A stretch of DNA of 32,000 nt from Candidatus Saccharimonadota bacterium (GTDB lineage: Bacteria > Patescibacteriota > Gracilibacteria > BD1-5 > UBA2023), in the NCBI GenBank assembly GCA_042852035.1, contig BAAFHK010000001.1:510001-542000 (forward strand), in the 5' to 3' direction. This document shows positions 3,515-22,138 of the stretch, piece by piece (position 1 is the stretch's first letter; every line of letters starts with the position of its first letter). The notes under the pieces are model-generated. The model had not been told where the DNA came from, did no database searches, and was given only the letters and a program-made list of their open reading frames with translations. The position numbers were made by a program, and so were the translations under genes.

Positions 3515-6500
3515 ATGCTCAATAGTCTTATAAAATTTGCTCTCAATAGAAGACCTCTCGTTCTTTTTCTCTACCTTATTATCAGTATTTTTGGGATCTA
3601 TACACTCTCAAAACTCCCTGTCGATGTACTCCCAGATCTTAATCGTCCTCGTGTCACAGTATTTGCGGAAGCAGAAGGTATGAGTGCTGAAGATGTAGAA
3701 AAGATTGTTACACTTCCTCTAGAACGAACCTTGCGCACTATTGCTTCAGTAGATGCTGTGAGATCCAGTTCGGCTGGATGACTCTCGGTCGTGAATGTAG
3801 AATTCGATTGGTGAAGTAGTGTAAATATCAATCGTCAAAGAGTATATGAAAAAATAGCATCAGTCACTCTCCCTGATGGAGTACATCTCACTGTAGCTCC
3901 AGAATCAGCACTGATGGGAGAAGTTCTTTGGATGGGATTGACTTCGACAGATCCAAAGATAAGTCAATCAGACCTTCGTCTCTATGCTGAAACTGAGCTG
4001 AGACAATCTCTTTCTACTGTATCTGGTATTTCGAATCTTTTGATTATGTGAGGTTCTGCCCCACAGTACACTATCTCTATTGATCCTGCAAAACTTTCCC
4101 AAAAACACCTTACTATCGAAGATTTACAAAAATCACTTTCAGACATTACCAATCCTGGATGAGCTGGTATAGCTATAGATAAAAAATCAGAATACCCGAT
4201 TAAACTTAACCCCATACAAAATACTGAAGAAAAGATTGGATCTATTGCTCTTCCGAATGGCAATATCCTCAAAGATATAGCAAGTATAGAAGTCGGGAAA
4301 AATAGCCAAAGACGATGAGATGCGCTCATCGATGGAAAAGAATGAGTCATAATCCGAGTTTCGAAAGTGCCAAATGCAAATACGGTAGATCTCACAAATA
4401 CACTTCTTGCTAAAATTACTGAGATTCAAAAGACTCTCCCCAAATGAATAGAGCTTAACGATGATATTTTTCGTCAAACATGGTTCATCGAGAAGTGATT
4501 GACAAATGTAGAAGAAGCCCTTAGGGATGCAGCGATTATCGTAGCGATTATCGTAGTACTCTTTCTTCTGAATGCTCGTACTGCATTCATTACAATGATC
4601 TCTCTTCCGATTACACTTCTTTTATCAGCAATAGTGTTCTATATTTTCTGAGTTGGGATCAATATTATGGTACTCGGAGGGCTTACTATTGCTATCGGAG
4701 AACTCGTGGATGATGCTATAGTGGATATGGAAAATATTTTTAGACGGTTACGACTGAATGCACTCCTTCCAAGCGAAGAACGTATTCATCATCTGAAAGT
4801 AATATTTGAAGCGTCGAAAGAAGTACGATGAAGTGTAGTTTACGCTACTATTCTTCAGCTTATAGTATTTATTCCATTTCTTCTTCTTCCATGAATCGAT
4901 GGGAAAATACTTGCCCCTATCGGTATGGCATATATTACTTCGATGATTATGTCACTCCTCGTAGCGGTGACTTTTGTTCCTGTCATATGTAGCTATCTCC
5001 TTCCTACATGGATCGAAAAACGTCATGGGAAAATATCTGAAGATACTTGGTTTACGGAAAAACTCAAACACTGGGCAAAATGACCAATTCTCTGGAGTCT
5101 CAAAAATCCACAGAAAGCCCTCCTGTTTGCTCTTTTATCCATACCACTTACTCTACTTGGATACGTGATGGCAAGTGAAGAATGACTTCCTGCATTTAAC
5201 GAATCAAGTTATACGATTTCCATCACCACAAAACCCTGAAGTTCACTGGAATACACACTCGATATTACAAAAAATTTCTCTCTGGAACTCAGAAAGATCT
5301 CATGAATCGAACGAGCTGGAGCGATTCTCTGACGTGCTGATGCTGATGCTCATGCTCAATGATCGAATAATGCAGAAATCGAAGTGGCACTCGCACCAGA
5401 TGTAACCAATGAAGAAAAAGCGAGAATCTATGATGAAATAAATGGCGTAATCGGGAAGTATAAACAAGTTGCCGTCATTGGTATAGGACAACCTATTACA
5501 CATAGAGTAGAAGAAATTATTTCAGGAATTCGTGCCCCACTCGTTATCAAGGTTTTCGGGGAAGATCTGGATACCTTAGAAACACTCGGAAAGCAGATCG
5601 TAGAAATCACCAATACTGTCGAAGGTACTCTCAATATTTCCCTAGAATCTCAAACAAAAATCCCAAGTATTACCGTCACGCCAAATACCCCATCTCTTGT
5701 CTCACAGAAAGTAAACTACAATGAAGTAAAGGAACTTCTTGATGTGGGAATCGGAGGACAAGAAGTCGCACGCGTGATAGAGTGACAAAATTCCTATCCT
5801 GTTGTTATGCGTTTTCCGATCTCATGGACAAGTACGCCAGAATCCATAAGAAGTATTCCTTTTTGGCTATCTGATGAACGAACATTTTTTATCGGAAATG
5901 TTGCGAATGTAGAACTTGGGAAATCGAGAAACATTATCAATCATGAAAACTCAGCGAGACGTATAGTTATATCATGATATACAAAAGATCGTTCCATAGT
6001 CGATGTAGTCGATGATATAAAGAAAGAAGTGGAAAAACTCGATATACCTTCAGGGTATAGAGTTTCGTATGAGGGACTATATTCTGCTCAAAAAGAATCC
6101 TCAAAACTTCTGATGTTTATCTCTATTGGTGTCCTTCTTGCTCTTTTTGGAATCCTTTATTGGCATTTTGGAAGTATTGTACTCGTGCTTCAGATATTTC
6201 TCGGTATTGTCACGGGGTGGTTCTGAGGAATTCTCTGAGTTTGGCTCACGGGAGGAGTTATATCTACCGCTCATCTTGTAGGATTTATCGCACTCATGGG
6301 TATCGTATCGAGAAATGGTATCATGCTCATTGATCATTATAAGCATCTCTGTCTCGAAGAATGACTTCCTTTTGATAAAAATACTATTCTCAAAGGATCT
6401 CTTGAACGTATCGTCCCTGTTTCTATGACAGCACTTTCTGCTATTCTTGGTCTTCTTCCTCTCGTTCTCTGAGCAGGTGATGCAGGGAAGGAAATGCTAT

Positions 6501-6640
6501 CACCGATAGCAACAGTGATATTTTGGTGATTGTTTGTTTCCACGCTTATTGAACTTGCTCTCAGACCATGAATTTTCTATAGATATTATCGTGAAGGTTT
6601 TCATCCGAAAGCATCAAAAAATACTTATATAGTCGAATAA
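3515..6640 (+). CDS. CusA/CzcA-family heavy-metal efflux RND transporter
   Basis: ATG 3515 to TAA 6638-6640, a single frame-2 reading with TGA = Gly (1041 aa). Typical N-terminus [18 protein letters not shown]...[17 protein letters not shown](G)SS at TGA 3812-3814. (G)LPAFNESS and [10 protein letters not shown](G)SNNAEIEV blocks. C-terminal TM bundle. Confidence 0.9.
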
Positions 6641-6660
6641 TTTATTTTCTCACCTTTTCT

Positions 6661-6674
6661 TTATGGATCCATAA
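6661..6674. promoter_or_regulatory. Perfect 14-bp palindrome TTATGGATCCATAA upstream of the DUF305 gene
   Basis: Read directly from the sequence. It lies 51 nt upstream of ATG 6725. The TATGG/CCATA half-sites also occur in the 568-584 repeat, in the opposite arrangement. Confidence 0.3.
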
Positions 6675-6724
6675 TAATTCTCTTTTCTATTGTTGTTCAT
6701 CTTCTTATTTTTTACCTATTTTTT

Positions 6725-7396
6725 ATGAAAACTTCTATCATCATCGGACTTATCGTCCTCTCATCTCTCGCTCTCGCTAGTTGTAGTGATACCACTCAGA
6801 AGACTCCTATATCTACGAATCCTGCACCAACCTCTTCTGTTACATCGACTTCCACTCCAAAAACTACTTCCGCAACATCGACTAATACATCTATGGCAGG
6901 TATGGATCATTCAAAAATGGATATGGGGACTTCTACAGATAGCGGAAATATGACATCTATGGATCATATGTGAGCTTCTACAGAAGAGGAATTCATCGCT
7001 AATATGATCCCCCATCATCAAGAAGCTGTCGACACTGCGAGTATTATCGTAGCAAAAACTGAAAATGTAGAGCTCAAAAAAATTGCACAAAATATTGTTT
7101 CGGCTCAGAAAACAGAAATAAGTCTTCTGAATTCTTGGATGAAGACATGGTATCCAAATAGTACCCTCAAAATAAATTATATGCCTATGATGCGTGATCT
7201 CTCAAAACTTTCTGATCATGATCTTGATGATGCATTTATGGAAGATATGGTTAAGCATCATGAGTGAGCGGTGCATATGGCAGAAGAAGTTCTTGAAGTA
7301 TCTCAACGACCTGAAATTGTCCAGATGGCAAATGATATTATTCGTACACAAAATGCAGAAATCAAGAAATTTAAGGAACTTCTTGGAAATCATTAA
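6725..7396 (+). CDS. DUF305-family lipoprotein (copper-resistance associated)
   Basis: ATG 6725 to TAA 7394-7396 with TGA 6971-6973 and 7265-7267 as Gly (223 aa). Lipobox LALASC, S/T-rich linker with MDHSKMDMG/MTSMDHM. Two DUF305-like repeats: MIPHHQEAVDTA and MVKHHE(G)AVHMA. Confidence 0.8.
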
Positions 7397-7414
7397 TTTT
7401 TTATCCCTATTTTT

Positions 7415-8089
7415 ATGAATCAAAAAGATTGTTGTCATATCGAAGAGAAGGCATCACTTAAGCCCTTATACCTACTCCTTGTAGGTATTGGATGAGTGAG
7501 TATTGGTCTTACTCTTCTTTTCCCTATAAATACCTTCATGATGTACCTGATGGGTGTATGGTTTCTAGCTTTTGGATTACTAAAGCTTTACGATCTCCGT
7601 GGTTTTGTAGAAGCATTCTGCCAGTATGATTTTATTGCAAGAAAATTAAAGTTATATGGATATATCCTTCCTTTTTTAGAAATAATCCTTGGTCTTATCT
7701 ACATACTCAATACGAGTATGCTCTATATGACAGCGGTAAATGTAGTAGCTCTTATTATTTCTCTACTTGGTATAGTCAGTGCCTATTCGGTTGTGAAATC
7801 AGGAAAACAGATCGCATGTGCATGTATGTGAACAAAGTGGAAACTTCCAATGACAAAAGTTACTGTATTGGAAAATCTTTTTATGGCTTTTATGGTTGTA
7901 TATATGTTTATATATCCTGAATCCATGATGAATATGACTGATATGAATACTGGGAGTCATGTTATGCAGGTAGATGAAAGCACCATTATGTCTTCTGAAA
8001 TGATGACACCCTCATCAAATAATGATGATGTTATGCGTGAACACTGTAAAATGATGCCAGAAATGGTGGGCTGTGAAAAATATAGATAA
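7415..8089 (+). CDS. MauE/DoxX-like integral membrane protein with Cys/Met-rich C-terminal tail
   Basis: ATG 7415 to TAA 8087-8089 (224 aa). N-terminal CCH, four hydrophobic segments. ACACM(G)TKWKLPMT resembles the CxCxG motif of MauE-type proteins. The tail ends ...DVMREHCKMMPEMVGCEKYR. Confidence 0.65.
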
Positions 8090-8108
8090 TTCTTAACCTT
8101 ATCCGTAT

Positions 8109-9854
8109 ATGAAAAAACTCCTTTTAATATTCCTTATTCCTGTATTGCTTTGAAGTTGTAGTATTGTTTGACTAAACAATCCTCAAAATAAGGAACAAAC
8201 ATCCGTACAGGTTATAACATCAACTGAAAATCCACAGGACGCTATGATGCGTGAACACTGTAAAATGATGCCGAGTATGGCAGGTTGTGAAAAATACAAA
8301 AATGATGCCAATACAAATAATTCAACTAAGAAAAGTTTGAATGAACTTATCTTGGTAGATGACGAAACAACCACTGATGTAAAACCAACAGAAGTAGTCA
8401 ATCTGAAAGATGGAGATACTTATGACCTCACTATACAAAAAGTTCGTAAGGTTATAAATGGTAAGACCTTTATTATGCTTTCGTATAATGGAAGTATCCC
8501 TTGACCAACTTTCCGTGCTCCAAAAGGTGCAACAATAAAGTTTAAGGTTCGTAATACTGTAAAGGAACTTGCCACGACTATTCATCCACACGGTGTACGG
8601 CTCAACTATCTCTATGATGGTGTACCAAAAGACCAAGGTGGAGCACAAGACCCAATTAAAGTAGGCGATGTGTACGAACAAATTATTACTTTTCCAGATA
8701 CTGGAGTGATGTGGTATCATCCACACACACGAGATGACTTCGAACAAGAACTTGGTGAATATGGAACATTTCAGATATACGACCCGAATGAAAAACCAAC
8801 AGTAGATAGTCAAAATGTCATTACACTTGATGATGTTCTTATAGAAAATGGAGTTATTCCACCATTTGAACAAGATACCGTAAATTATACCCTGATGGGT
8901 CGCTATGGAAATACAATGTTTGTAAATGGAAATACAGACTTCTCACTCACAATCAAACAAGGGGAAATAAAGAGGCTCTATCTCATCAATACTGCCAATG
9001 CAAGACCATTTGATTTTTCCATTCCTTGAGTGAAGATGAAATTGATCGGTGGTGATATGGGGTATTATGAAAATGAGAAGTTTGTAGACCACCTTATTAT
9101 ATCTCCCGCTGAACGCTACATAGTCGATATTATGGGTGAAAAATCTGGTAATTTTCCAGTGCAAAGTATCGGTGGTGGAAAAACTATTTCACTTGGAACA
9201 TTGACGGTAATGCCAAACACAACTCCCTCAATCTATAAAAAAGATTTCGAAACACTCAAAACTCATGATATTCTCTGAAATCTTAAAAATACACTTTCAT
9301 CCTACCAATCAAAAACACCAGATAAAAGTCTAAAAATCACCATGACCATGGAAGGAATGGATGGTATGGAATGAATGGGAGATATGGGTGGCATGCATCA
9401 TAATATGTGATGAATGGGTATGGGTGGTATGAGTATGGGAGACGAAAGTCCTGATGGTATAGAATGGGAAGATACAATGGCAATGATGAACTCAAATAGT
9501 ACCAATAAGACAACAAAATGGATACTCCGAGATGAACAAACAGGAAAAGAAGGTATGGATATAGATTGGAGTTTCAAAAAGTGAAGTCTTGTGAAAATAC
9601 GCCTTACGAATGATAAAGATGCTATGCACCCAATGCAACATCCATTCCATATGCACGGACAACGGTTTTTGATACTCAATCAAAATGGAACAGTAAATAC
9701 AAACTTTGTATGGAAAGATACAGTTCTCATACCAAAAGACCAATATGTAGATATTCTTGTAGATATGAATAATCCTTGAAACTGGATGGCACACTGTCAT
9801 ATCGTAGAGCACCTCTTCTCTGGTATGATGTTTGGATATAAAGTTATAGAATAA
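8109..9854 (+). CDS. Multicopper oxidase lipoprotein (CopA/CueO-like) with Met/Gly-rich loop
   Basis: ATG 8109 to TAA 9852-9854 in frame 0 (581 aa). Lipobox LL(G)SCS with TGA 8151-8153. Copper ligand motifs HPHGV, WYHPH, HPFHMHG, HCHIVEHLFSGMM. Met-rich insert MTMEGMDGME(G)MGDMGGMHHNM(GG)MGMGGMSMG. Confidence 0.9.
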
Positions 9855-9882
9855 TCTCTCTATGAATTGGAGAGAGTAGAAC

Positions 9883-9912
9883 AAATGGAATGAATACTAT
9901 TCATTCCATTTT
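9883..9912 (+). terminator. Rho-independent terminator after the multicopper oxidase gene
   Basis: AAATGGAATGA-atactat-TCATTCCATTT, an 11-bp perfect stem running into a T-run, 29 nt after the stop. Confidence 0.7.
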
Positions 9913-11138: not shown

Positions 11139-12041
11139 ATGCGACATCCAAATCTGGAAACCGAAGAAGCAACTTCTCAATATCCAAAATCGAACCATCC
11201 AAAAACACTGATTATATCACTTCTTATTGTCTCAATACTCGCAAGTGTTGGGTCATCATATTTCTTTTCAAAACAAGTTTCAAAAGAAGTAATAGAAAGC
11301 TATCTTGCTCTTGAATACAAAAAATCAGGTGGAAAAGAAAATTATGAACTTATTTCTGAAGCACAACGCCTTCAGCTTGAACAACAGATACCACAGATCC
11401 GTGAGTTTTTGAAAAATGGTGCATCTGCTAATCAGCAGGCTGGAGGACAAGAAGCTCCACCAAAAAAACTCTCCAAAGAAGAGCTTGCTTCTATTAAGAA
11501 AGATGCGTACATCGAAGGAAATAAAGAAGCAAAAATCACTCTCATCGAATATAGTGACCTTGAGTGTCCATTCTGTATCCGTCAATTCAAAGAAGGAACT
11601 ATAAAAAAAATTCATGAAAAATATGGAGATACTGTAAATTCTATCTTTAAGAATTTCCGTGGAGTACCACATGAAAATGCTGAGATCGAAGCAGTGGCTA
11701 CACTCTGTGCTGGACAGGTTGGAGGAACTGAAAAATATGCAAGCTATTACCAAGCCATTCTTGGGCGATCGAATGGTGGAAATGGAACTGGATTTAGTAA
11801 AGATGCCCTTGTGCCACTTGCCAAGGAATTTGGACTTGATATGAAAAAATTTCAATCATGTTTCGATGCGAAATCTACCCTTGCTCGATTTGATGCGGAA
11901 ACAACGGAAGGAAAGAAACTCGGCGTATCTGGTACTCCTGGAACAGTGATTATTAATAATGAAACTGGAGAATATGAACTTGTAGCTGGAGCATATCCAG
12001 TATCTGAATTTGAACGAGTTATTACTAAACTCCTGAAATAA
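11139..12041 (+). CDS. DsbA-family thiol:disulfide oxidoreductase, membrane anchored
   Basis: Intact 300-aa ORF under either genetic code. TM anchor, LIEYSDLECPFCIRQF (CPFC active site), C-terminal GVSGTPGTVIIN (cis-Pro loop). Confidence 0.85.
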   Translation: MRHPNLETEEATSQYPKSNHPKTLIISLLIVSILASVGSSYFFSKQVSKEVIESYLALEYKKSGGKENYELISEAQRLQLEQQIPQIREFLKNGASANQQAGGQEAPPKKLSKEELASIKKDAYIEGNKEAKITLIEYSDLECPFCIRQFKEGTIKKIHEKYGDTVNSIFKNFRGVPHENAEIEAVATLCAGQVGGTEKYASYYQAILGRSNGGNGTGFSKDALVPLAKEFGLDMKKFQSCFDAKSTLARFDAETTEGKKLGVSGTPGTVIINNETGEYELVAGAYPVSEFERVITKLLK

Positions 12042-12134: not shown

Positions 12135-12806
12135 ATGAAAAAACTTCTTTTTATTATACCCGTACTTTTGCTTTTAGCATCTTGTACCAATAGTACTCCA
12201 TCAAAATCGTCTTCTTCTACAGATAATACACAAGTATCGTCTGTGGGTAATAGTTCTACATCTTCTGTTCCAAAAGAAAATAGAACTGTTCCAACGCCAT
12301 CATATGGCTCAGGAAATCATACTCTTGAGATATTTGCTGATTTTCAATGTCCTGCATGTCAGAATTTCTCCAAAACACTTGAGCCAATCTTCAAGAATTA
12401 TGCCGATAAGTGACAACTTATTATAAAATACCGCCAATTCCCACTCGATATGCACAAGAACGCCTTTCGTGATGCTATGATAGCACTGTGTGGAGCAGAA
12501 CAAGGAAAGTATATGCAAGCCAAAACCGCTCTCTATGCTTTAGAAACAATGAAATCATGAGGAAAAGTGTCAGATACTGAGCGTATCGATACTCTCACAA
12601 AAGCGTGACTCGATAAAGAGAAAATAAGTAGTTGTCTCACCTCAGAAGCATTTAAGGGGCAAGTAGAATCCGATCTCGCATATGGTGAATGACTTCGTGT
12701 AGATGGTACTCCATCGCTATTTCTTGATGGAAAAAAGATAGATATGTCAGTATTTAAAGATAAAGATTGATTTACATCATTTTTAGATACACTTCTGACA
12801 AAATAA
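12135..12806 (+). CDS. DsbA-family lipoprotein (CPAC active site)
   Basis: ATG 12135 to TAA 12804-12806 with five TGA as Gly (223 aa). Lipobox LLASC, S/T-rich linker, EIFADFQCPACQNF, ...RVDGTPSLFLDGKK. Confidence 0.85.
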
Positions 12807-12824: not shown

Positions 12825-13178
12825 ATGTTGTACCTCATCTTCAAATACTGTATTACTGCGTGAGTGATTGTAGCTGTATCTGAACTGGCAAAAGCATCAG
12901 ATAAAGTCGGAGCACTTATTGTATCACTTCCTCTTATTACCATACTTACCCTTATCTGGATACATATAGATGGATGAGGTGTAGCAAAAGAGGCAAATCA
13001 TGCATACTATACCTTTTGGTATGTGCTTCCGACACTTCCTATGTTTCTTGTTTTTCCGACACTATTAGAGCGATTTGGTTTCTGGATAGCACTCCTTCTT
13101 GCTTGTTTGATGACTATTGCTATTTTCTTTCCTTATACCTTCTTCTTGAAGCACTTCTGAATAAATCTTCTTCCATAA
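12825..13178 (+). CDS. Small integral membrane protein (possibly DUF3147-like)
   Basis: ATG 12825 to TAA 13176-13178 with TGA = Gly (117 aa). About four hydrophobic segments. The family assignment is a weak recollection only. Confidence 0.5.
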
Positions 13179-13192
13179 CCTTGTATATACTC

Positions 13193-14116
13193 ATGTCTCA
13201 TTCCCACAAACATCACGACCACAGCAGTCATAGTAACCATAGTCATTCTCACGGAGTATCAGATATTTCCACGGCATTTTTTATTGCCATAACGATCAAT
13301 ATTATTTTTGTTGCCATTGAAGTCTTTTTTGGTATTCGAGTGCATTCCCTTGCTCTTCTTTCTGATGCAGGACACAATGGAATGGATGTACTTAATCTAA
13401 TCTTCTCTGGAATTGCTCTGTGGCTTTCTAAAAAAAGAAACACTATCACTTATACCTATGGATACAAGCGAGCCAGTATATTTTCCGCTTTTATCAATTC
13501 CGTGCTTCTTGTAGTCACTGCTTTATATCTGATATTTGAGGCAATAAATAGAATGTTCACACCTGTTGAAACGGTTGGAACTACTATGATGATAGTCGCA
13601 AGTATGGGTATATTGGTGAATGGTATTTCTGGGTGGTTGTTGATGCGATGAGGAAGTGAAGACATCAATATAAAATCTGCGTATCTTCATTTACTCGGTG
13701 ATGCTCTGGTGTCTCTCGGGGTAGTTATCGGAGGTGCGATTATCTATTTTACAGGATATACCGTTGTTGATCCGATTATCTCTATCATTGTTTCAATGGT
13801 GATGATTATGAGTGTTATCAGTCTTTTGAAGCGGAGTATCCGAATGAATTTCGATGGTGTGCCAATGAATATAGATATTGAAGAAATAACAGAAGAATTA
13901 CGTGAAATAGATGGAATTACAGATGTTCACCATATTCATATCTGGTCACTTTCTACTACAGAAAATGCTCTTACGGCACATATAGTTCTCAAACAATGAG
14001 TAAATGAAAAAGAAATCAAGGACACTATCCGACATCATCTTGAAGATGAAAATATCCACCATACCACGCTTGAAACAGAATATGAAAAATGTAGCAACGA
14101 AAATTGCGATTGTTAA
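13193..14116 (+). CDS. czcD: Cation diffusion facilitator (CzcD/ZitB-type Zn/Co/Cd exporter)
   Basis: ATG 13193 to TAA 14114-14116 (307 aa). His-rich N-terminus MSHSHKHHDHSSHSNHSHSHG. CDF motifs LLSDAGHNGMDV, YGYKRA, AYLHLLGDALVSLGV. C-terminal domain VHHIHIWSLS and a Cys-rich end CSNENCDC. Confidence 0.9.
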
Positions 14117-14261
14117 AACCTAATATCTGAGAGTTATATCTTTCGTCTTTACTCAAAAACTCTTTCCTAAGTTTCTAGAGACACAGCTCTATCAAACATA
14201 CTTCTTTCGGTAATGTGGATAGTTTGCCTAGTAAGCATATTAGGATACCCTTTCAGCACTT

Positions 14262-14538
14262 CGATTTGACAAATAAAATATTTGAATATGATACGCCCAC
14301 TAGGTGTCCCATTTGTCTCATTTTGAGTCCAGTTCCGAGATGACCTAGATGCTAGAAGTCATATTTCTAGTAACCCACTCTGGGTCTCGCCAAGGTTTGG
14401 TGGAGTACCAAGGTGTCCAGCCATAAAAAATCGAGCTCGCAGACCATGTTGCCTGCGTTTCACATAACACTCAGTTTCCGACATAAAACGCGAAGGAACT
14501 CTCCAAATCGGAGAGTTCCTTCCTTTTTTGATATCTTG
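14262..14538 (+). repeat. Copy A of a ~275-bp conserved noncoding element (promoter-to-terminator unit; candidate sRNA)
   Basis: Hand alignment to 16381-16657 gives roughly 80-85% identity with two 1-nt indels. It starts with TTGACA (14266-14271) and TTTGAATATGAT and ends in a strong intrinsic terminator. The segment looks more GC-rich than its surroundings. Substitutions show no 3-nt periodicity. Confidence 0.85.
14492..14529 (+). terminator. Intrinsic terminator closing element copy A
   Basis: GAAGGAACTCTCC-aaatc-GGAGAGTTCCTTC (13-bp perfect stem) followed by CTTTTTT. Confidence 0.8.
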
Positions 14539-14633
14539 TGGTTATATATATGTCCTTGTTTCTAGAGTTTCTTGGATTCGAACTTTTTAGGGTATGCTAC
14601 TTTTAGCTATAGCCAATTAGATTCTAAGTCCAA

Positions 14634-16271
14634 TTATTTGCCTTTTACAATAGAATCAATCCAATCTGTAAGATCATTTGTATCATAATCACCACTATGA
14701 GGCTGTCACCATGAAATAGCATAATCTGCATTAAATCATTTATTTCTGAGATACGTTGCGAGGATGAGAGATATAGCAGTCGATGTATCACTATCTTTTG
14801 ACCCTACGCGTATCCTCCAGTATTTGCTCGTATTTGCATTCTCAGAACCTATATAGTTCATTGGATTCATCATTTTTATGATCTGAGTATCTGCCATCGT
14901 ACCACTCACAGTACCATTATTCATACCAAATAATGTAAAATGTTTGGCATTGATAGAATCATCACCGAAAAGATTGTTCTCACCAGTACTGAGATCGACA
15001 CCATCGAATGCTGGAGTCGTCTTCATACGACCAAGTGCCTGGACGAATCCATCAAAATCTATACCTGTTACTTTTTTATCCTCAACAGTAAGATATGAAT
15101 ATGAAGATAGATCTGATCCGTTATCGAGAGCTTTTTGTGCTGATGAAATGATAGATTTCTCGAGATATGTCTTAAAAGTACCATTACCATCTGCGTTCAG
15201 AGCAAGAATTGTACCGGAATCATCTGTCAATCCAAGTGAATTAATATATTCTGGAAATAGCTTTGTAAGCTTTTTTGATAACTCTATCTGACTATCTGTC
15301 ATAGTACCATTACCACCCCTACCTGTGTAGTTATATATACCATCAAATAACCATTCATATGCCATATCTGCGTTATCGAGATTGGTGATCGGACAGTATG
15401 CAGAAACTGCAAACACTGATGTCGATGCATCTGCAGCACCAATTTCGCGAAGATACTGAAGATAGTCAGGATTATCGCCTGTTGCACCGAGAAGTGATGA
15501 CATAGCACCACCTGCAGATGTTCCATTTGAGATGATTTTATTAGAGTCTCCAGGTATTTTGACATCATTATAATGAAGATATGCGACAGCTGCCTTGAGG
15601 TCTACGATACCTGCAGGAGCTTTACCTGTATACTTGCCATTTGTATCCTGAATTGTACGACCACGAGCACCAGGACTCGCGACGATATATCACTTTGATA
15701 ATGCAACCTTAATAGCAGAATTCGCATCACCCGACGGTCTCACTTGGGGCATCATTCAGCCTGATGTATTCATCGATACTTGCCCACTCATTTGTCATAT
15801 ATTCTGCGAATTATTCATTCAAGATCAAGACATACTAGTTCTACCCATCATACCACCCATATTACTGGCATCTACAGTTCCTGGTTCTGCTGGCATATAG
15901 CCTCAGACTTTATTTGGGAGAAATATTGGTGCTGTATCGATAGTATATCCATTTATCGTTTGACCAGAAAAATATGCCTCAGGAATATAGATGTTCATAG
16001 ACTGATATTTCGTATCCACTGGCTTACTTACATAGACGATATTTTCATATGCACGATACGGGATAGTTTCACCACTGAAAGTAAAAGTTTTGTGAGTATA
16101 TTTTTGAGTATCGAAATCAAGACTATAAGTAGATGGATTTTCTGTAGCTCCAGACTGAGTCGATACAACATCAGTACTTATAGAGGTATGGGAAGCATCA
16201 TTCGTACAGCTAGAAAGTCATATAGTGGCGATGCCTAAAAAAAGATAGGCGGATTTTTGAGGAAAATTCAT
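14634..16271 (-). CDS. Tannase-like (subtype B tannase/feruloyl esterase family) alpha/beta-hydrolase lipoprotein
   Basis: Minus strand, ATG (cat 16269-16271) to TAA (14634-14636), with many TGA as Gly (545 aa). Lipobox I(G)LSSC. Nucleophile elbow GTSAGG in IISNGTSAGGAMSSLLGATGDNPDYL...VFAVSAYCPITNLDNADMAYEW, recalled as typical of Lactobacillus-type tannases. Met/Gly/Ser-rich insert NMGGMMGRTSMSGSGMNNSQNIGQMSGQVSMNTSGGMM. Confidence 0.75.
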
Positions 16272-16380
16272 GAGAATACAAGTAAAGAAATTATAAGACA
16301 TATAGAATATGGACCTCCATGATGGAAACATATCATAAACAGATGATACAGTAATTAGGTAAAAGCAAGGTAAGAAATAA

Positions 16381-16657
16381 GATATTAATAACTAAAATAT
16401 TTGAATATACTACGCCCATTAGGTGTCCCCTTTGTCTCATTTTGACTCCAGTTCCGGAATGACCTAGATCCTAGAAGCCATATTTGTCGTCATCCACTCT
16501 GGGTCTCGCCAACGTTTGCTAGAGGACTAAGGTGTTCAGTCATATAAAAACAAGCTCGAGGGGCCATGTTTCCGGCGTTTCACATGATACTCAGTTTCCA
16601 ACAAAAACACGAAGGAATTCTCCGATTTGAAGAGTTTTCTTTCTCTTTTATATCTTC
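16381..16657 (+). repeat. Copy B of the ~275-bp conserved noncoding element
   Basis: Same orientation as copy A. Carries TTTGAATATACT and conserved blocks TACGCCCAyTAGGTGTCCC, CCAGTTCCG, ATGACCTAGAT, CCACTCTGGGTCTCGCCAA, GCGTTTCACAT, ACTCAGTTTCC. The terminal hairpin is weaker (GAAGGAATTCTC...GAAGAGTTTTCTTTC) and is followed by TCTTTT. 7-bp inverted ends: AAGATAT (16379-16385) and ATATCTT (16650-16656). Confidence 0.85.
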
Positions 16658-16674
16658 ATGAGAAGTTTTTTACT

Positions 16675-16705
16675 TTGACAAAAAGATTGATATTCATATA
16701 TTCAT
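16675..16705 (+). promoter_or_regulatory. Promoter of the fur-family/COG0523 operon with tandem ATATTCAT repeats (candidate autoregulatory box)
   Basis: TTGACA (16675-16680), 16-nt spacer, TATATT (16697-16702). ATATTCAT-ATATTCAT (16690-16705) overlaps the -10. The gene start lies 28 nt downstream. Confidence 0.5.
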
Positions 16706-16732
16706 TCAAATATTTGATACTAAGTCTCAATT

Positions 16733-17131
16733 ATGGATATTGAATCACTTCTCAAGTCTCATGGAAAAAGCATCACAAAAGAGAGAATAGAACTATACGA
16801 ATGAATCCAAAACTTACACCTCTTCCAAGCAAGTGATCTCACAGAGAAATTTCCACACATAGGACGTGCCAGCATCTTCCGTGTTCTCAATCTCTTTGTA
16901 GATATTGGAATTCTCAGAAAATTGATCCTCGACGATAGATGAGACTTTTATGAGCTTGAAGAGCAGTCACACCATGAACATTTTGAATGCAAGAGTTGTC
17001 ATACAGTCTTTCACTTTGATGCTCGATCTATCTGCAAAATGCTTGAATATCTCGCAAAAAAACAGTGATTTCTTCTTAAAAATCATCAAATCCTCCTCTC
17101 TTGAGTCTGTCCAAATTGTAACCAACATTAA
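16733..17131 (+). CDS. Fur-family metalloregulator (Zur-like)
   Basis: ATG 16733 to TAA 17129-17131 with four TGA as Gly (132 aa). wHTH ...GRASIFRVLNLFVDIGIL, metal-site HHEHFEC, structural Zn pairs CKSC and CPNC. Zur is inferred only from the adjacent COG0523 gene. Confidence 0.8.
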
Positions 17132-17133
17132 TC

Positions 17134-18336
17134 ATGCAAAAACTCATTCCCGTCACCGTACTTTCCTGATTCCTCTGAAGCGGAAAAACCACTCTCCTCA
17201 AACATATCCTCGAAAATCGAGAATGACTCAAAGTGGCTCTCATCGTCAATGATATGGCAGAGATTAATGTCGATGCCAATCTTATCAAAGATGGAATTGA
17301 ACTCTCGCAAACAGAAGAAAAACTGGTAGAAATGTCGAATGGTTGCGTATGTTGCACCCTTCGTGAAGACCTCCTCATCGAGGTTAAGCGCCTTGCAGAA
17401 GCAAATAAATATGATGCTATTATTGTGGAGTCAACTTGAGTTGGAGAACCTGTTCCTATTGCTCAGACTTTTTCTTATGTTGATGAAGAAAGTGGTATTG
17501 ACCTCTCAAAACTTGTCAGACTTGATACTATGGTAACAGTTGTGGATGCAAAGGAGTTTTTGAAGAATTTTTCTACTGCCGAAGCACTTAAAGATAGAGC
17601 ATGGGAAGCAACTCCGGAAGATGATAGAACTATTGTAGACCTCCTTGTAGAACAAGTTGAGTTCTGTGATGTACTCATCGTCAATAAGATATCTGGAATA
17701 TTAGAAGAAGAAAAAACTACTCTCAGAGCCATACTCAAGTGACTTCAGCCAACAGCAGAATATATAGAAACTGACTGGGGTAAGGTAGATATAGATCGCG
17801 TGATCGATACTGGATTATTCTCTATGGAGAAGGCAGAAAATAGCACTCTCTGGATGCGAGAACTCCAGTCATGATGACATAAAAATCATACACCAGAAAC
17901 AGAAGAATATGGAATTTCTTCATTTATCTACCGTCGAAATAAGCCATTTCATCCTGAAAGATTTCTCTCTCTTGCTAATAGGGAATGGGCTGGTGTTATC
18001 CGCTCAAAATGACTCTTCTGGCTCGCAAGCCGTAATAATCTCGCAGGAAGCTGGGGGCAGGCAGGAGGATCTGTACGAGTCGACCCTGCATGAAGCTGGC
18101 TCTCTGCGCTCCCGAAGGAACAACTCGCCCTCTATCCAGAATATCAGGCTGAACTCCTTGATTTTAAGGATTTCCCTTACCACGATAGAAGACAAGAACT
18201 CGTGATTATAACAATTCGATGAAACCAAAAAGAGATAGAAAACATGCTCGATGCGGCCCTTCTTACGGATGAAGAGATGCTCGCATGACCTGAGACCTGG
18301 AAGACATACCATGATGGATTTCCAAAGTGGAATTAA
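17134..18336 (+). CDS. COG0523 (CobW/YjiA/ZigA-type) G3E GTPase, putative zinc metallochaperone
   Basis: ATG 17134 (2 nt after the fur stop) to TAA 18334-18336 (400 aa). Walker A S(G)FL(G)SGKTTLL with TGA at 17167-17169 and 17176-17178. GCVCC metal motif, [17 protein letters not shown], CobW C-terminal domain. Confidence 0.9.
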
Positions 18337-19458: not shown

Positions 19459-20145
19459 TTATTCAGTTTGGGATTCACTCTCGTCACTGTCTTCAAGAAG
19501 TTCGAGTGTCGTCATAAGATTCTTGATCGTAAAGTCGATGGGGTCGATACTTGGATATTTTGCATGAGTTTTTCCACGCGTGATTCAGGCAAGAATCATT
19601 GTTGGTACCTCATCACTTGAGAGCACTTCAAGAGCAGGGAAGACATTACTTTCAGTATAAATATCTGCCTCATATGCGAGCATCATTTTTTCATGAAGCT
19701 CAAGAGGGGGATTTTCTGGAGCCTGAGAAACAAGAATTCCTCACAGGGAAAGACCAAAATCTTCTACGTAGTAGTCTTTTTGTTCGCTAAAATTTTCTAT
19801 AAATGATTTTTCTTCTATAAAAGAATCCCGATTTTCCTTATGAACATCTGCTTTTTCTAATGCTTTCGAATATCCAAGGAAAACATTCGGCACAATAATA
19901 TCTCCCACCTCATGAATCATATCCACACTATATCCAAAATAAGGGAAATAAAGTCTTTCAGGAAGAAATTCTGAAGCAATCCAAGTTATAATTTCAGCTG
20001 AAGGAACTTTCTTAAGAAGTAAATAAAAAGTATTCCCCCTCCGAAAAACTTCTGCCATATGATTGGATTGAGTTTTTTCTGGGGTAAAAGTTTTTAGTAT
20101 CCCATCAAAAAGTGTAGGGGAGTCAGTAGCTATAACTCTAAGCAT
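19459..20145 (-). CDS. Divergent nucleoside phosphorylase-superfamily (MTA/SAH nucleosidase-like) protein
   Basis: Minus strand, ATG 20143-20145 to TAA 19459-19461 with two TGA as Gly (228 aa). Weak resemblance to MtnN blocks (EVGDIIVPN, L(G)GILVS, PTMILA(G)ITRG). Catalytic residues are not clearly conserved. Confidence 0.4.
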
Positions 20146-20206
20146 GATTTGATTTTTAGTATGTGAGGGATAGTATAGGGAAAACCCTAAATGTCAAAGT
20201 CTCATT

Positions 20207-20611
20207 ATGGATATTTCAACCCTTATTGTTGGTCTTACCTTTGGTCTTATTATCTGAGTTGCCATTATGAGGATTCTTTTCTCTCTGGAACACAAAGAAA
20301 TACGCAAGTCAGCTATCTCTGGATCAAAGAATCAAATCCTCGGAGAACTCTATGAAAAGGTTCTCCCCGTACTTCCAAATTTTCCATTCAAACCAAAAGA
20401 TATGGTATTTCTCGGAAAGGGATGTGATTATATTATCTTTGATGGACTAAATGAAGGGAGACTTAAGGAAATTATTTTTCTAGAACTCAAGAGCGGAAAG
20501 TCACGACTCACTAAAAACGAGGAAGCCATTCGTTATGCTGTTTCCCATAAACAAGTTCGATATGCAGAATATCATATAGCATCAAGTAAAAATGATGAAA
20601 TTGAAAGGTAA
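20207..20611 (+). CDS. COG4741-type membrane-anchored endonuclease related to archaeal Holliday junction resolvase
   Basis: ATG 20207 to TAA 20609-20611 with TGA 20255-20257 as Gly (134 aa). N-terminal TM, then GELYEKVLPVLPNFPFKPKDMVFLGKGCDYIIFDGL...IIFLELKSGKSRLTKNEEAIR, which matches the remembered family pattern. Confidence 0.65.
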
Positions 20612-20725
20612 ATTTTACATCAAAAGTTGTTTTTTTTACCGAATACGTATAGACTGAGTATAAGAAAATTAAACTTGATTCTTCTTAGAACAATACCATA
20701 TTCATAATTGATTTTTCATCCTATT

Positions 20726-21478
20726 ATGCTCCTCTCCACTCGCTCACTTGAATGATACTGACTCGATAAAATTTTTGCCATAGCAAAGGAGGCATGATGC
20801 TCTGGTATTGATCTATCAGTAGACTTTAGTCTTTTTGATACCTTTGACAGCCTCTATCTCAAGGAGCTTTCAGCTCGCTATAGCATACCTATAATAAGCG
20901 TGACAGCTCCAACTCGGAGAATGACAAAGAAAAAAGCAAGTGAAGTTATCGTACTTGCTGAAAGTCTTTGAGTAAAGCTTGTGAATTTTACTCCTCCGCA
21001 TAGAACCGATACTGACAAAGAATGGTTTAATGTCGGACTCAAGGAGCTCATAAATGAGTATCCTAATGTACTCATCAATGTAGTAAATGCTCCTCCAAAA
21101 ACATGGCTTTTCGTCGTGTCAGAGTATGGAGATGCTCGACCTGAAACAATAAAAAAAATTACCGAACATACGGCTCTCTCCATAGAAAATGTTGAACCCG
21201 AGAGCTGAGTTGATCTTATTAAAACATTCACTCTTCTTGGTACAACTATTGGACTTGTATATTTTTCTGATAAAACAGAAGAAAAATGAGGACTCTTTCC
21301 TGGAGAAGGTGATATGCCCCTCGAGAGCTTTCTCATAAGGCTTCGAGATGTTTGATATCCTGGAGAATTCACACTCGATATCTCTCCCGAAAGCATCAAT
21401 GCAGGAAATGATAACGAGGTCGTTGCGAGAATACAAAAAGCTGAGAGCTATCTTCATCGATACTTTGCGAAAGAGTAA
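20726..21478 (+). CDS. Xylose isomerase-like TIM-barrel (sugar phosphate isomerase/epimerase family) protein
   Basis: ATG 20726 to TAA 21476-21478 with several TGA as Gly (250 aa). N-terminus LSTRSLE(G)Y(G)LDKIFAIAKEA(G)CSGIDLS is typical of the family. The rest gives only weak support. Confidence 0.5.
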
Positions 21479-21480
21479 TT

Positions 21481-21507
21481 AAAAATCTTCCTTTAAGGAA
21501 GATTTTT
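21481..21507. terminator. Bidirectional terminator (27-nt perfect palindrome)
   Basis: AAAAATCTTCCTT-T-AAGGAAGATTTTT lies between convergent genes. It overlaps the last codons of the minus-strand gene. Confidence 0.7.
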
Positions 21508-22138
21508 AATTACTAAATATTTTCATGGCCTTTAATTTATTCTCAACCGTTCACTCTATCTCAAGACGATCTCTCAAAAAGATATTTCATTTTTGAGCAA
21601 GGATGGAGAGAACGAGCTTATCATTATATTCCAATCTATTAGTGAAGTCTTCGAGATTCATGATTGCATATTTCACTTTTTTTCCAAAGAATGTTTTCTC
21701 AAGAAAGTTATTAAATTCAATCTTATCGAGTTCACCAATAATAAAAATATCGACAATATTATTTGTTGTCTCATTTCGAAAATCAAGAATTGCCTCAGAG
21801 ATAGTAACGAGATCAAGATTTTTTCTTCATTTAAAAAAGTCCTTGATAGGAGTCATAACATTATATGCCTTCAAGAACATATCACGAATCTGCTCATAAA
21901 TCACTGAGTTTCGATTCATGAGGTAATATTTTTTCTTATTCTGCTCGTATGATTTCAGGATGCCAAGATGTTCGAGATTCATCAGCTCTCGACGAACCGC
22001 ATTAATCTGCTCATCTGTATCACGACAAAGCTCACGTATAAAAAAACCAGTGCTATTTTTTGCAACGGTGTCTTCGATAACGAGCTTTTCGAGGAGCTTC
22101 ACACGAGAACGAGAACCAAAGAGTTTGACGAGATCCAC
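21506..22138 (-). CDS. Winged-helix (ArsR-like) transcriptional regulator with uncharacterised C-terminal domain
   Basis: Minus strand, ATG 22136-22138 to TAA 21506-21508 with three TGA as Gly (210 aa). N-terminal LFGSRSRVKLLEKLV...FIRELCRDTDEQINAVRRELMNLEHLGILK. Confidence 0.6.

Follow-up and report, generated by a model that had tools for sequence, protein, structure and literature searches.

What two diverged copies of one non-coding sequence are doing on either side of an esterase gene is the question raised by a 32,000 nt stretch of a Gracilibacteria genome (Candidatus Saccharimonadota bacterium, assembly GCA_042852035.1, contig BAAFHK010000001.1, positions 510,001–542,000; hereafter 'the window', numbered from its first letter). 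An earlier note, made from the sequence alone, had taken the pair for members of a novel small RNA family. The reading favoured here, with moderate confidence, is that the upstream copy (copy A) is the intact gene for an undescribed stable small RNA, which originated at the tRNA-Gln(CUG) locus of one Gracilibacteria subclade and came to occupy it, and that the downstream copy (copy B) is a pseudogene.

Anatomy of the two repeats

The copies lie in the same orientation and match in two blocks, 14266–14439 with 16385–16558 (85 % identity) and 14444–14487 with 16564–16607 (86 %); the 80–85 % claimed previously is thus borne out. The end-to-end alignment (approximately 14264–14538 against 16383–16657) contains two 1 nt indels. 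For the 19-mer CCACTCTGGGTCTCGCCAA 0.00 chance occurrences are expected in the window, and neither word scans nor covariance-model scans of the window found a third copy. The element is, as described before, richer in GC than its surroundings (0.46–0.47 against approximately 0.33 in the flanks).

In copy A, a −35-like hexamer, TTGACA (14266–14271; this and the following features are on the + strand), marks the 5′ limit of conservation in all full-length copies of a 16-copy alignment, and a −10-like hexamer, TATGAT (14287–14292), follows 15 nt further 3′. The spacer, AATAAAATATTTGAA, is almost invariant and holds the palindrome ATATT-TG-AATAT. Its length of 15 nt is the reason that a consensus promoter scan did not call this putative promoter. 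Both hexamers are kept at the 5′ boundary in all intact copies of the element and are mutated in the decayed ones. The RNA core occupies 14293–14423 (131 nt in the window, 136 model positions) and is near-invariant across genomes, apart from a variable stretch close to the expected transcription start (14294–14298). It closes with CCAGCCA (14417–14423), an acceptor end with discriminator G and CCA that is identical to the 3′ end of tRNA-Gln and forms the 3′ limit of high conservation. Beyond it lie a tRNA-Gln-derived trailer (14424–14491), with a hairpin CGCAG/CUGCG and the block GCGTTTCACAT, and an intrinsic terminator (14492–14529) composed of a perfect 13 bp stem, a 5 nt loop, and a C followed by six Ts (−22.3 kcal/mol). 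This terminator is bidirectional and sits between the convergent genes for a cation diffusion facilitator (CDF) exporter and the esterase.

The conserved unit is therefore approximately 160 bp (14264–14423), putative promoter plus core ending at a tRNA-type CCA, and not the promoter-to-terminator unit of approximately 275 bp that had been proposed. The remaining 3′ stretch of approximately 110 nt, with the block GCGTTTCACAT and the terminator, is the inherited tRNA-Gln trailer and evolves at ordinary non-coding rates (67–83 % identity). The proposed resemblance of the −10 motif to one in the csoR region is not above chance.

Copy B (16383–16657, core 16412–16542) is a decaying duplicate. Its −35 box is mutated to TTAATA (16385–16390), the −10 box reads TATACT (16406–16411) and CCAGCCA has become TCAGTCA (16536–16542). 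The apical stem is broken by two mismatches, and trailer and terminator are eroded; the very strong terminator claimed for copy A is confirmed. A remnant of the leader and start region of zur, the gene downstream of copy B, overlaps the esterase stop codon at 14616–14637 (+). It matches 16712–16734 at 20 of 23 positions (19 of 22 aligned bases and one gap), a score reached by 0 of 1000 shuffles. The duplicated segment therefore spanned approximately 370 bp, and the suggestion that it originally took in the zur leader is confirmed.

A family in other Gracilibacteria

Genome-wide scans were exact-word searches, and the loci retrieved with them were 2–20 kb long. The element was found in three metagenome contigs from two metagenome lineages (L001/L003 and L004) and in 12 metagenome-assembled genomes of Candidatus Gracilibacteria or 'Peribacteria' among the GTDB species representatives; the remaining matches were chance occurrences in high-GC genomes. 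There is one locus per genome among the 185,579 species representatives scanned. The element is thus a genuine family with members in other genomes of genetic code 25, as a homologue search suggested by the earlier note was meant to establish. At least 13 further genomes or metagenome contigs of Gracilibacteria carry the copy A unit at 93–99 % identity, and the similarity is limited to the interval from TTGACA (14266) through CCAGCCA (14423).

Eleven full-length copies are near-invariant at 93–99 % (A, L012a, L059, L003, L004, L018, L051, L028, L041a, L010 and L055), two are cut by contig ends (L011 and L023), and two have diverged at the 5′ side, keeping only the 3′ 90–110 nt or so at 93–95 % (L034 and L038). 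Three are diverged throughout: B at 85 %, L012b at 80 % and L041b at 92 %. Covariance-model scores follow the same division, with 160–170 bits for the near-invariant copies, 125–150 for the three diverged ones and 87–123 for the two 5′-diverged ones; copy A scores 169.7 bits against 124.9 for copy B.

Upstream of TTGACA the sequence is unrelated at every locus of the 16-copy alignment. Downstream of CCAGCCA there are a few unrelated flank types, each with a hairpin and a T-run. Such a hairpin and T-run follows 13 of the 14 copies scanned; those of L018, L010 and L034 are weak or questionable. These terminators are probably each species' own tRNA-Gln terminator. A block of four genes used as anchors and labelled cl1–cl4 here adjoins the element in L011, L012, L028, L038, L041 and L059. 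The cl1, cl2 and cl3 proteins are 36–71 % identical between carrier genomes, approximately 65–75 % at the nucleotide level (cl4 stands out with 87–94 %), and apart from pairs of close relatives, identity above 85 % at these loci is limited to the element. Walking from cl4 to 12 more loci (L063–L074) yielded no further copies by nhmmer or covariance model.

At two of these loci (L063 and L064, from a close relative with 96.6 % identical cl4) both contigs end within approximately 1 kb past cl1, short of the region of zur and the repeats. Such ends fit two repeat copies that break metagenome assemblies.

Unequal constraint on the two copies

The trailer was used as a built-in neutral control. Among copies A and B, L012a, L038 and the flank of the tRNA gene in L034 it is 67–83 % identical. 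Copies A and L012a agree at 97 % in the core and at 80 % in the trailer, whereas A and B agree at 85 and 82 %. In relative-rate (Tajima-type) tests with four outgroup copies, copy B carries 17–18 lineage-specific substitutions against 1–2 in copy A (p ≤ 7e-4), and L012b likewise 24–26 against 1–3 in L012a. The −35 box has also been lost in L012b and L041b, by different mutations, which together with the drift and the eroded features indicates that the diverged copies are independent decaying duplicates.

Judged by these comparisons, copy A is evidently constrained and copy B is drifting neutrally, at the rate of the trailer. The equivalence of the two copies that the earlier note had implied is accordingly lost. 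It had also allowed that both might be plain decaying duplicates of a 5′ untranslated region (UTR); that description holds for B, whereas the relative-rate tests and the comparison with the trailer reject it for A.

The tRNA-Gln(CUG) locus

The key to the anatomy of the element was missed previously and is not visible from the window alone. In L072 and L073, which lack the element, the syntenic intergenic site, convergent with cl1, holds a gene for tRNA-Gln(CUG). Behind the intact tRNA-Gln of L034 come TATAAAACCGAGCTCGCAGACC..., then a terminator and then CTTTTTTG.T.TCTTGTGGTTATATAT.TGTCC, and positions 14424–14565 of copy A (trailer and terminator) are 78 % identical to the sequence after this tRNA-Gln. 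A trailer like that of copy A also follows the element in L012a, L038 and copy B. A second flank type follows it in L028 and L041a, and in L059 the same type follows a 3′ fragment of tRNA-Gln. From these flank homologies the core sits exactly in the tRNA-Gln slot, with the trailer and terminator of that gene. The element thus occupies the tRNA-Gln locus and ends as that tRNA does, in acceptor strand, discriminator G and CCA.

Within the core, the final 43 nt (14381–14423) are themselves tRNA-Gln-derived according to a long-gap alignment with the tRNA-Gln(CUG) of L072 (p = 0.005; 0.02 without CCAGCCA). UGGG-UCUCGCCAAG matches tRNA-Gln positions 1–15 at 13 of 15, and 3′ of it come a 5 bp stem with a 7 nt loop, a 7 nt strand, a G and CCA, in the register of the T arm and acceptor end. 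The segment resembles tRNA-Gln minus its D and anticodon arms. Approximately 88 nt of conserved non-tRNA sequence precede it in the same unit, so that a tRNA-derived segment without anticodon arm lies inside a longer conserved unit, as in pseudo-tRNA-containing regulatory RNAs of the tRNA^Other type.

ARAGORN and the Rfam tRNA model call no tRNA in the whole window and none at the element in the other loci; both call the genuine tRNA-Gln(CTG) in L034, L072 and L073. A tRNA-like minihelix was considered as the present fold and set aside, as it is energetically disfavoured (−23.3 against −35.9 kcal/mol for the minimum-energy fold). Given this weak fold and the lack of tRNA calls, the likeness to tRNA is taken as a mark of origin and not as a working structure. 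The tRNA-Gln genes of L034, L072 and L073 are identical at 74–75 of 75 positions, and the constraint on the element is therefore tRNA-grade.

Two further observations concern tRNA-Gln itself. The CAG share of glutamine codons is 0.36 in carriers against 0.46 in non-carrier relatives, with unchanged AAG and GAG fractions. This could reflect loss of tRNA-Gln(CUG) in carriers, is confounded by GC content and is only suggestive. Downstream of the element in L059 (3112–3436, − strand) there are two further units of approximately 140 nt, each with its own terminator and each ending in the last 20–23 nt of tRNA-Gln (TTCGAATCCTAGTATCCCAGCCA). The second is predicted to fold strongly (−43.9 kcal/mol), its 5′ end pairing with the 3′ strand that derives from the tRNA. 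Neither unit recurs at the other loci compared, and they could be other tRNA-end-bearing RNAs or remnants of attachment (att) sites.

Non-coding status and secondary structure

Substitutions among the conserved copies are spread evenly over the codon phases (8/8/7) and no conserved reading frame exists on either strand, in agreement with the non-coding nature proposed earlier. A 105-codon antisense open reading frame (ORF; 14167–14484, −) spans copy A, and similar ORFs occur in five other loci. The phases show no coding constraint on them, and they are regarded as a by-product of code 25, which has only two stop codons.

Searches of the window and of 14 related loci against Rfam 15 gave no match at the gathering score. 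Within 14100–16800 there was no match even at E ≤ 10, which upholds the statement that the element belongs to no known RNA family and supplies the cmscan check that had been recommended. ARAGORN found no transfer-messenger RNA (tmRNA), and no conserved ORF of the kind is present. A literature search found no description of such an RNA in Gracilibacteria.

The fold was assessed from single-sequence predictions and an alignment fold, which agree on a long hairpin at 14342–14386 (+). In it, GACCUAGA (14342–14349) is predicted to pair with UCUGGGUC (14379–14386), forming P3, and UGCUAGAA (14350–14357) with UUCUAGUA (14365–14372), forming the apical stem. A second hairpin predicted by both, P4 (14398–14423, +), runs UGGUGGA-G-UAC, loop CAAG, GUG-UCCA-G-CCA and includes the 3′ end. 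All three substitutions within P4 in conserved copies fall on its loop or bulges (14405, 14410 and 14420). Elsewhere in intact copies the variable sites are the apical loop (14358–14359, the main hot spot), an internal loop (14374–14375) and a 5′ loop (14325–14330). Interior variable sites thus avoid the predicted stems (Fisher p = 0.02). A helix CUAGGU/ACCUAG, put forward in the earlier note, is not favoured: the sole informative change, U14346 to C in L051, breaks that helix and turns a U.G into a C.G pair in GACCUAGA/UCUGGGUC, which it thereby improves. Copy A with its terminator has a fold z-score of −4.46; that of copy B is −0.36, no better than shuffled sequence. Unpaired segments of the element are as invariant as paired ones, and secondary structure alone therefore cannot explain the conservation.

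The favoured reading and points against it

A gene for a stable RNA explains the promoter-like 5′ boundary, the tRNA-type 3′ boundary, the tRNA-grade constraint beside an ordinary trailer, and the single locus with housekeeping neighbours. Transcription would start a few nucleotides 3′ of TATGAT, at approximately 14299, and the RNA is predicted to fold into a 5′ region, the long hairpin P3 and the 3′ hairpin P4. The transcript could end at the inherited tRNA terminator (14529, approximately 230 nt); a mature end at ...CCAGCCA (14423, approximately 125 nt), formed by tRNA-style 3′ trimming, seems more likely because conservation stops exactly there. The RNA would act in trans. Most likely, we infer, it is a structured RNA bound to protein or to the ribosome, and possibly one that mimics tRNA-Gln, in preference to a short-seed antisense regulator, because paired and unpaired positions are equally invariant at tRNA level and the 3′ part is tRNA-Gln-derived. 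Copy B would have originated when the segment of approximately 370 bp (RNA gene, trailer and zur leader) was duplicated, the esterase ending up between the copies, and would have decayed neutrally since.

A bolder form of this proposal, which is unlikely, sees in the element a housekeeping RNA new to this lineage, one that evolved from tRNA-Gln(CUG) and has taken the place of that gene. It would be either a mimic engaging the machinery of translation or Gln-tRNA synthesis (GluRS/GatCAB, RNase P or the ribosome) or the core of a new ribonucleoprotein (RNP). Such a mimic would retain U1-A72, G2-C71, G3-C70, G73 and CCA. Either role, if true, would explain the tRNA-grade invariance over the whole length of the RNA.

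Several results weigh against the RNA-gene interpretation. The spacer of the copy A promoter is, at 15 nt, suboptimal. Taken by itself, the core has a predicted fold no more stable than that of shuffled sequence (z = −0.9). In the covariation analysis the earlier note had recommended, 96.5 % of cells are paired with one compensatory pair and the score does not exceed shuffle controls; there is too little variation for such an analysis, which leaves the secondary structure unproven. When duplex energies were used to look for targets among 25 translation-start regions of the window, the RNA did no better than shuffled RNA. The varied terminators are not independent evidence for an RNA, as they are probably the native ones of tRNA-Gln. 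The element is absent near the anchor genes in L072 and L073, whose cl4 is as close to that of the window as the cl4 of some carriers is, and its distribution is therefore clade-restricted or patchy. Finally, all three two-copy loci have the conserved copy upstream and the decayed one downstream, the order in L034 is tRNA, cargo, core, and L059 contains 20–23 nt fragments of the tRNA-Gln 3′ end; tandem site-specific insertions at a tRNA gene would give the same pattern.

Alternative explanations

This last set of observations leads to the main rival, possible though unlikely, in which the 160 bp unit is no RNA gene. Small integrative or cis-mobilisable elements would recombine at the 3′ end of tRNA-Gln(CUG), and the unit would be the conserved terminal arm (att-proximal end) of this family, near-identical between genomes through recent horizontal spread. 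Copies A and B would then be the right ends of two tandem islands, and the esterase the cargo of the older one. Site-specific recombination clearly happens at the tRNA-Gln locus. The unit lies directly against the 3′ end and trailer of tRNA-Gln, the empty sites in L072 and L073 hold an intact tRNA, and L034 has an intact tRNA at one end and a repeat of its 3′ part at the other, in the order tRNA-Gln, trailer, a 225 aa membrane protein and core. The 3′ fragments in L059 are typical of att repeats. In the two-copy loci the young copy is upstream and the decayed copy stands beside the native flank, with variable cargo between them (esterase, DUF1003 or CopA-type ATPase), and the distribution is patchy.

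However, no integrase or recombinase was seen in any locus among the ORFs scanned with Pfam and the precomputed annotations, most carrier-locus ORFs not having been individually scanned, and upstream of the element the 14 kb of the window, like L018, L041, L051 and L059, hold no intact tRNA-Gln. The stretch in common with the tRNA end is just 7 nt long, the genomes share nothing past the 160 bp, and the 5′ end of the unit coincides with a −35 box. The terminal inverted repeats and target site duplications expected of a MITE or interspersed repeat do not occur at the unit boundaries. Instead of many dispersed copies there is a single locus per genome, and the collections of viral contigs, plasmids and phages searched hold no match. 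In L028 and L010 the immediate neighbours of the unit are housekeeping genes.

It is very unlikely that A and B alike are relics without a selected role, left to decay as duplicates of a tRNA-Gln pseudogene or of a 5′ UTR. Copy B fits this description exactly, with its −35 box and CCA end lost, its stem broken and its drift at the neutral rate, and the 5′-diverged copies in L034 and L038 fit it as well. Copy A and ten others are nonetheless 93–99 % identical although the trailer is at 67–83 % and neighbouring proteins are mostly at 36–71 %; since equal rates are rejected, a relic may be seen in B and not in A.

Less credit still is given to a cis-acting leader (riboswitch or attenuator) of the operon of zur and the COG0523 gene, perhaps metal-responsive, which is extremely unlikely. 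It would account for copy B upstream of zur and for the spacer motif ATTCAAATATTT that the element has in common with the zur promoter region. Yet zur has its own promoter downstream of the copy B terminator (TTGACA-16-TATATT, 16675–16702, +), from which the leader runs on to the ATG at 16733. Copy A and all copies elsewhere have either no co-oriented downstream gene or unrelated ones, most being convergent with cl1, so that no constant downstream gene exists. No zur or other Fur-family gene was noted beside the element at other loci, where ORFs are partly annotated, and no riboswitch family matches. The genomic contexts thus contradict this explanation.

A small protein, encoded in + frame 2 from TTG 14282 or ATG 14288 (approximately 48 codons) or by the antisense ORF, is barely conceivable: both frames are open in several copies under code 25, but the substitution phases are flat, the start codon is lost in B, L041b has a 1 nt deletion, the C-termini differ at every locus, no Shine–Dalgarno sequence is present, and 96–99 % nucleotide identity without synonymous drift is unlike coding sequence.

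Relation to known systems

Among described RNAs, tRNA^Other of Bacillus cereus comes closest: it is a non-decoding pseudo-tRNA within a larger, Fur-linked regulatory RNA beside an island, with Fur boxes in its leader (Rogers et al. 2012, PMC3399842). As in that case, the element is tRNA-derived without resembling a decoding tRNA any longer, would be part of a longer transcript with extra 5′ sequence, and is sited where tRNA genes meet accessory genes. A link to the Fur family was proposed for both, here through the palindromic spacer motif shared with the zur promoter and the neighbouring zur in the window. Unlike tRNA^Other, the tRNA part of the element is only approximately 43 nt, lacks D and anticodon arms and goes undetected by ARAGORN and the Rfam tRNA model. 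The element has a predicted promoter of its own, the whole unit is nearly invariant across genera, and the two have no sequence relationship.

Both tmRNA and YrlA, a bacterial Y-RNA-like molecule, are structured RNAs whose tRNA-like domain ends in CCA. The element shares with them a tRNA-derived NCCA acceptor end joined to a non-tRNA domain, and strong conservation. It differs in lacking a tmRNA call by ARAGORN and a tag reading frame, in a tRNA-like strand that is internal and not formed by the 5′ end, in an acceptor identity that is Gln-like (U1-A72, G73) and not Ala, and in a tRNA-like fold that is not the predicted minimum-energy fold.

PrrF1/PrrF2 and RyhB are Fur-regulated, terminator-ended, trans-acting small RNAs with duplicated genes. 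The element would likewise be a stand-alone promoter-to-terminator unit and is intergenic, duplicated and, in the window, near metal genes. In contrast to them its conservation is uniform and not seed-centred, one copy is a pseudogene, the metal link fails in other genomes, and the terminator is inherited from a tRNA gene.

The att sites of genomic islands at tRNA genes, which may grow by tandem accretion, also lie at tRNA 3′ ends, with direct repeats around accessory genes, tRNA 3′ fragments (as in L059) and an intact tRNA in empty sites. Departures from that pattern, besides the lack of an integrase in the ORFs scanned and the mere 7 nt of tRNA identity, are the duplication of approximately 370 bp in the window, which takes in trailer and zur leader, the promoter-like sequence with which the unit starts, and the housekeeping flanks in some genomes.

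Bacteria of the Candidate Phyla Radiation are uncultured and have tiny genomes, and to our knowledge almost nothing has been reported of their non-coding RNAs. The RNA core is more conserved than nearly everything around it and is confined to one Gracilibacteria subclade. If expressed, it would be a clear case from nature of a tRNA gene turned into another kind of functional RNA, and a candidate lineage-specific component of translation or its control in organisms with a rewired genetic code. The analysis yields a precise covariance model and coordinates for transcriptomic tests. The repeat pair would explain the breaking of assemblies, and the apparent context of a 'metal sRNA' is incidental.

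Neighbouring genes and the metal context

The window (1–32000) uses genetic code 25. TGA occurs internally 1–25 times in every long ORF and is a sense codon, for which reason genes appear fragmented in ORF lists made with table 11. Upstream of copy A, translation with code 25 gives two DsbA-like proteins (11139–12041 and 12135–12806, both +) and the CDF exporter (12974–14116, +). Between the copies lies the esterase gene, of the BD-FAE family and previously called a tannase (14634–16331, −). Downstream of copy B follow the Fur-family regulator gene zur (16733–17131, +), a CobW/COG0523 GTPase gene (17134–18336, +) and the anchors cl1 (19459–20307, −), cl2 (20207–20611, +), cl3 (20708–21478, +) and cl4 (21506–22138, −; 210 aa).

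The metal-related context on which the earlier note had laid weight is not general. A class-I aminoacyl-tRNA synthetase gene is directly upstream of the element in L028 and the gene for ribosomal protein L21 directly downstream in L010, and further neighbours in other genomes are DsbB, DUF1003, ABC transporters, a deacetylase and a CopA-type ATPase. As the neighbours differ and include housekeeping genes, the metal surroundings belong to the window, where they are incidental, and not to the family. Just 3′ of the −10 box of zur is a perfect 12 bp palindrome, TCAAATATTTGA (16704–16715), a candidate autoregulatory Zur operator. The string ATTCAAATATTT, which this palindrome shares with the element, stands inverted in the element's promoter spacer. 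With at most two mismatches ATTCAAATATTT has six matches against 1.6 expected, a number reached in 1 of 100 shuffles; two of the six are the element copies themselves, and as a possible sign of a Fur-family link the shared motif is weak evidence.

The protein encoded by cl4 has no Pfam match, and its homologues are named ArsR-family winged-helix regulators by one source. It is 87–96 % identical across genomes in which neighbouring proteins are at 36–70 %, and by this comparison it is an unusually constrained, uncharacterised Gracilibacteria protein. A copper module comprising a CopA-type P-type ATPase and a multicopper oxidase is common to positions 3515–9854 of the window and 1–4093 of L003. 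The oxidase gene (8109–9854 in the window) is 89 % identical in nucleotide sequence between the two. In L003 the RNA element lies directly 3′ of it, and the window has only a terminator there (9855–9910).

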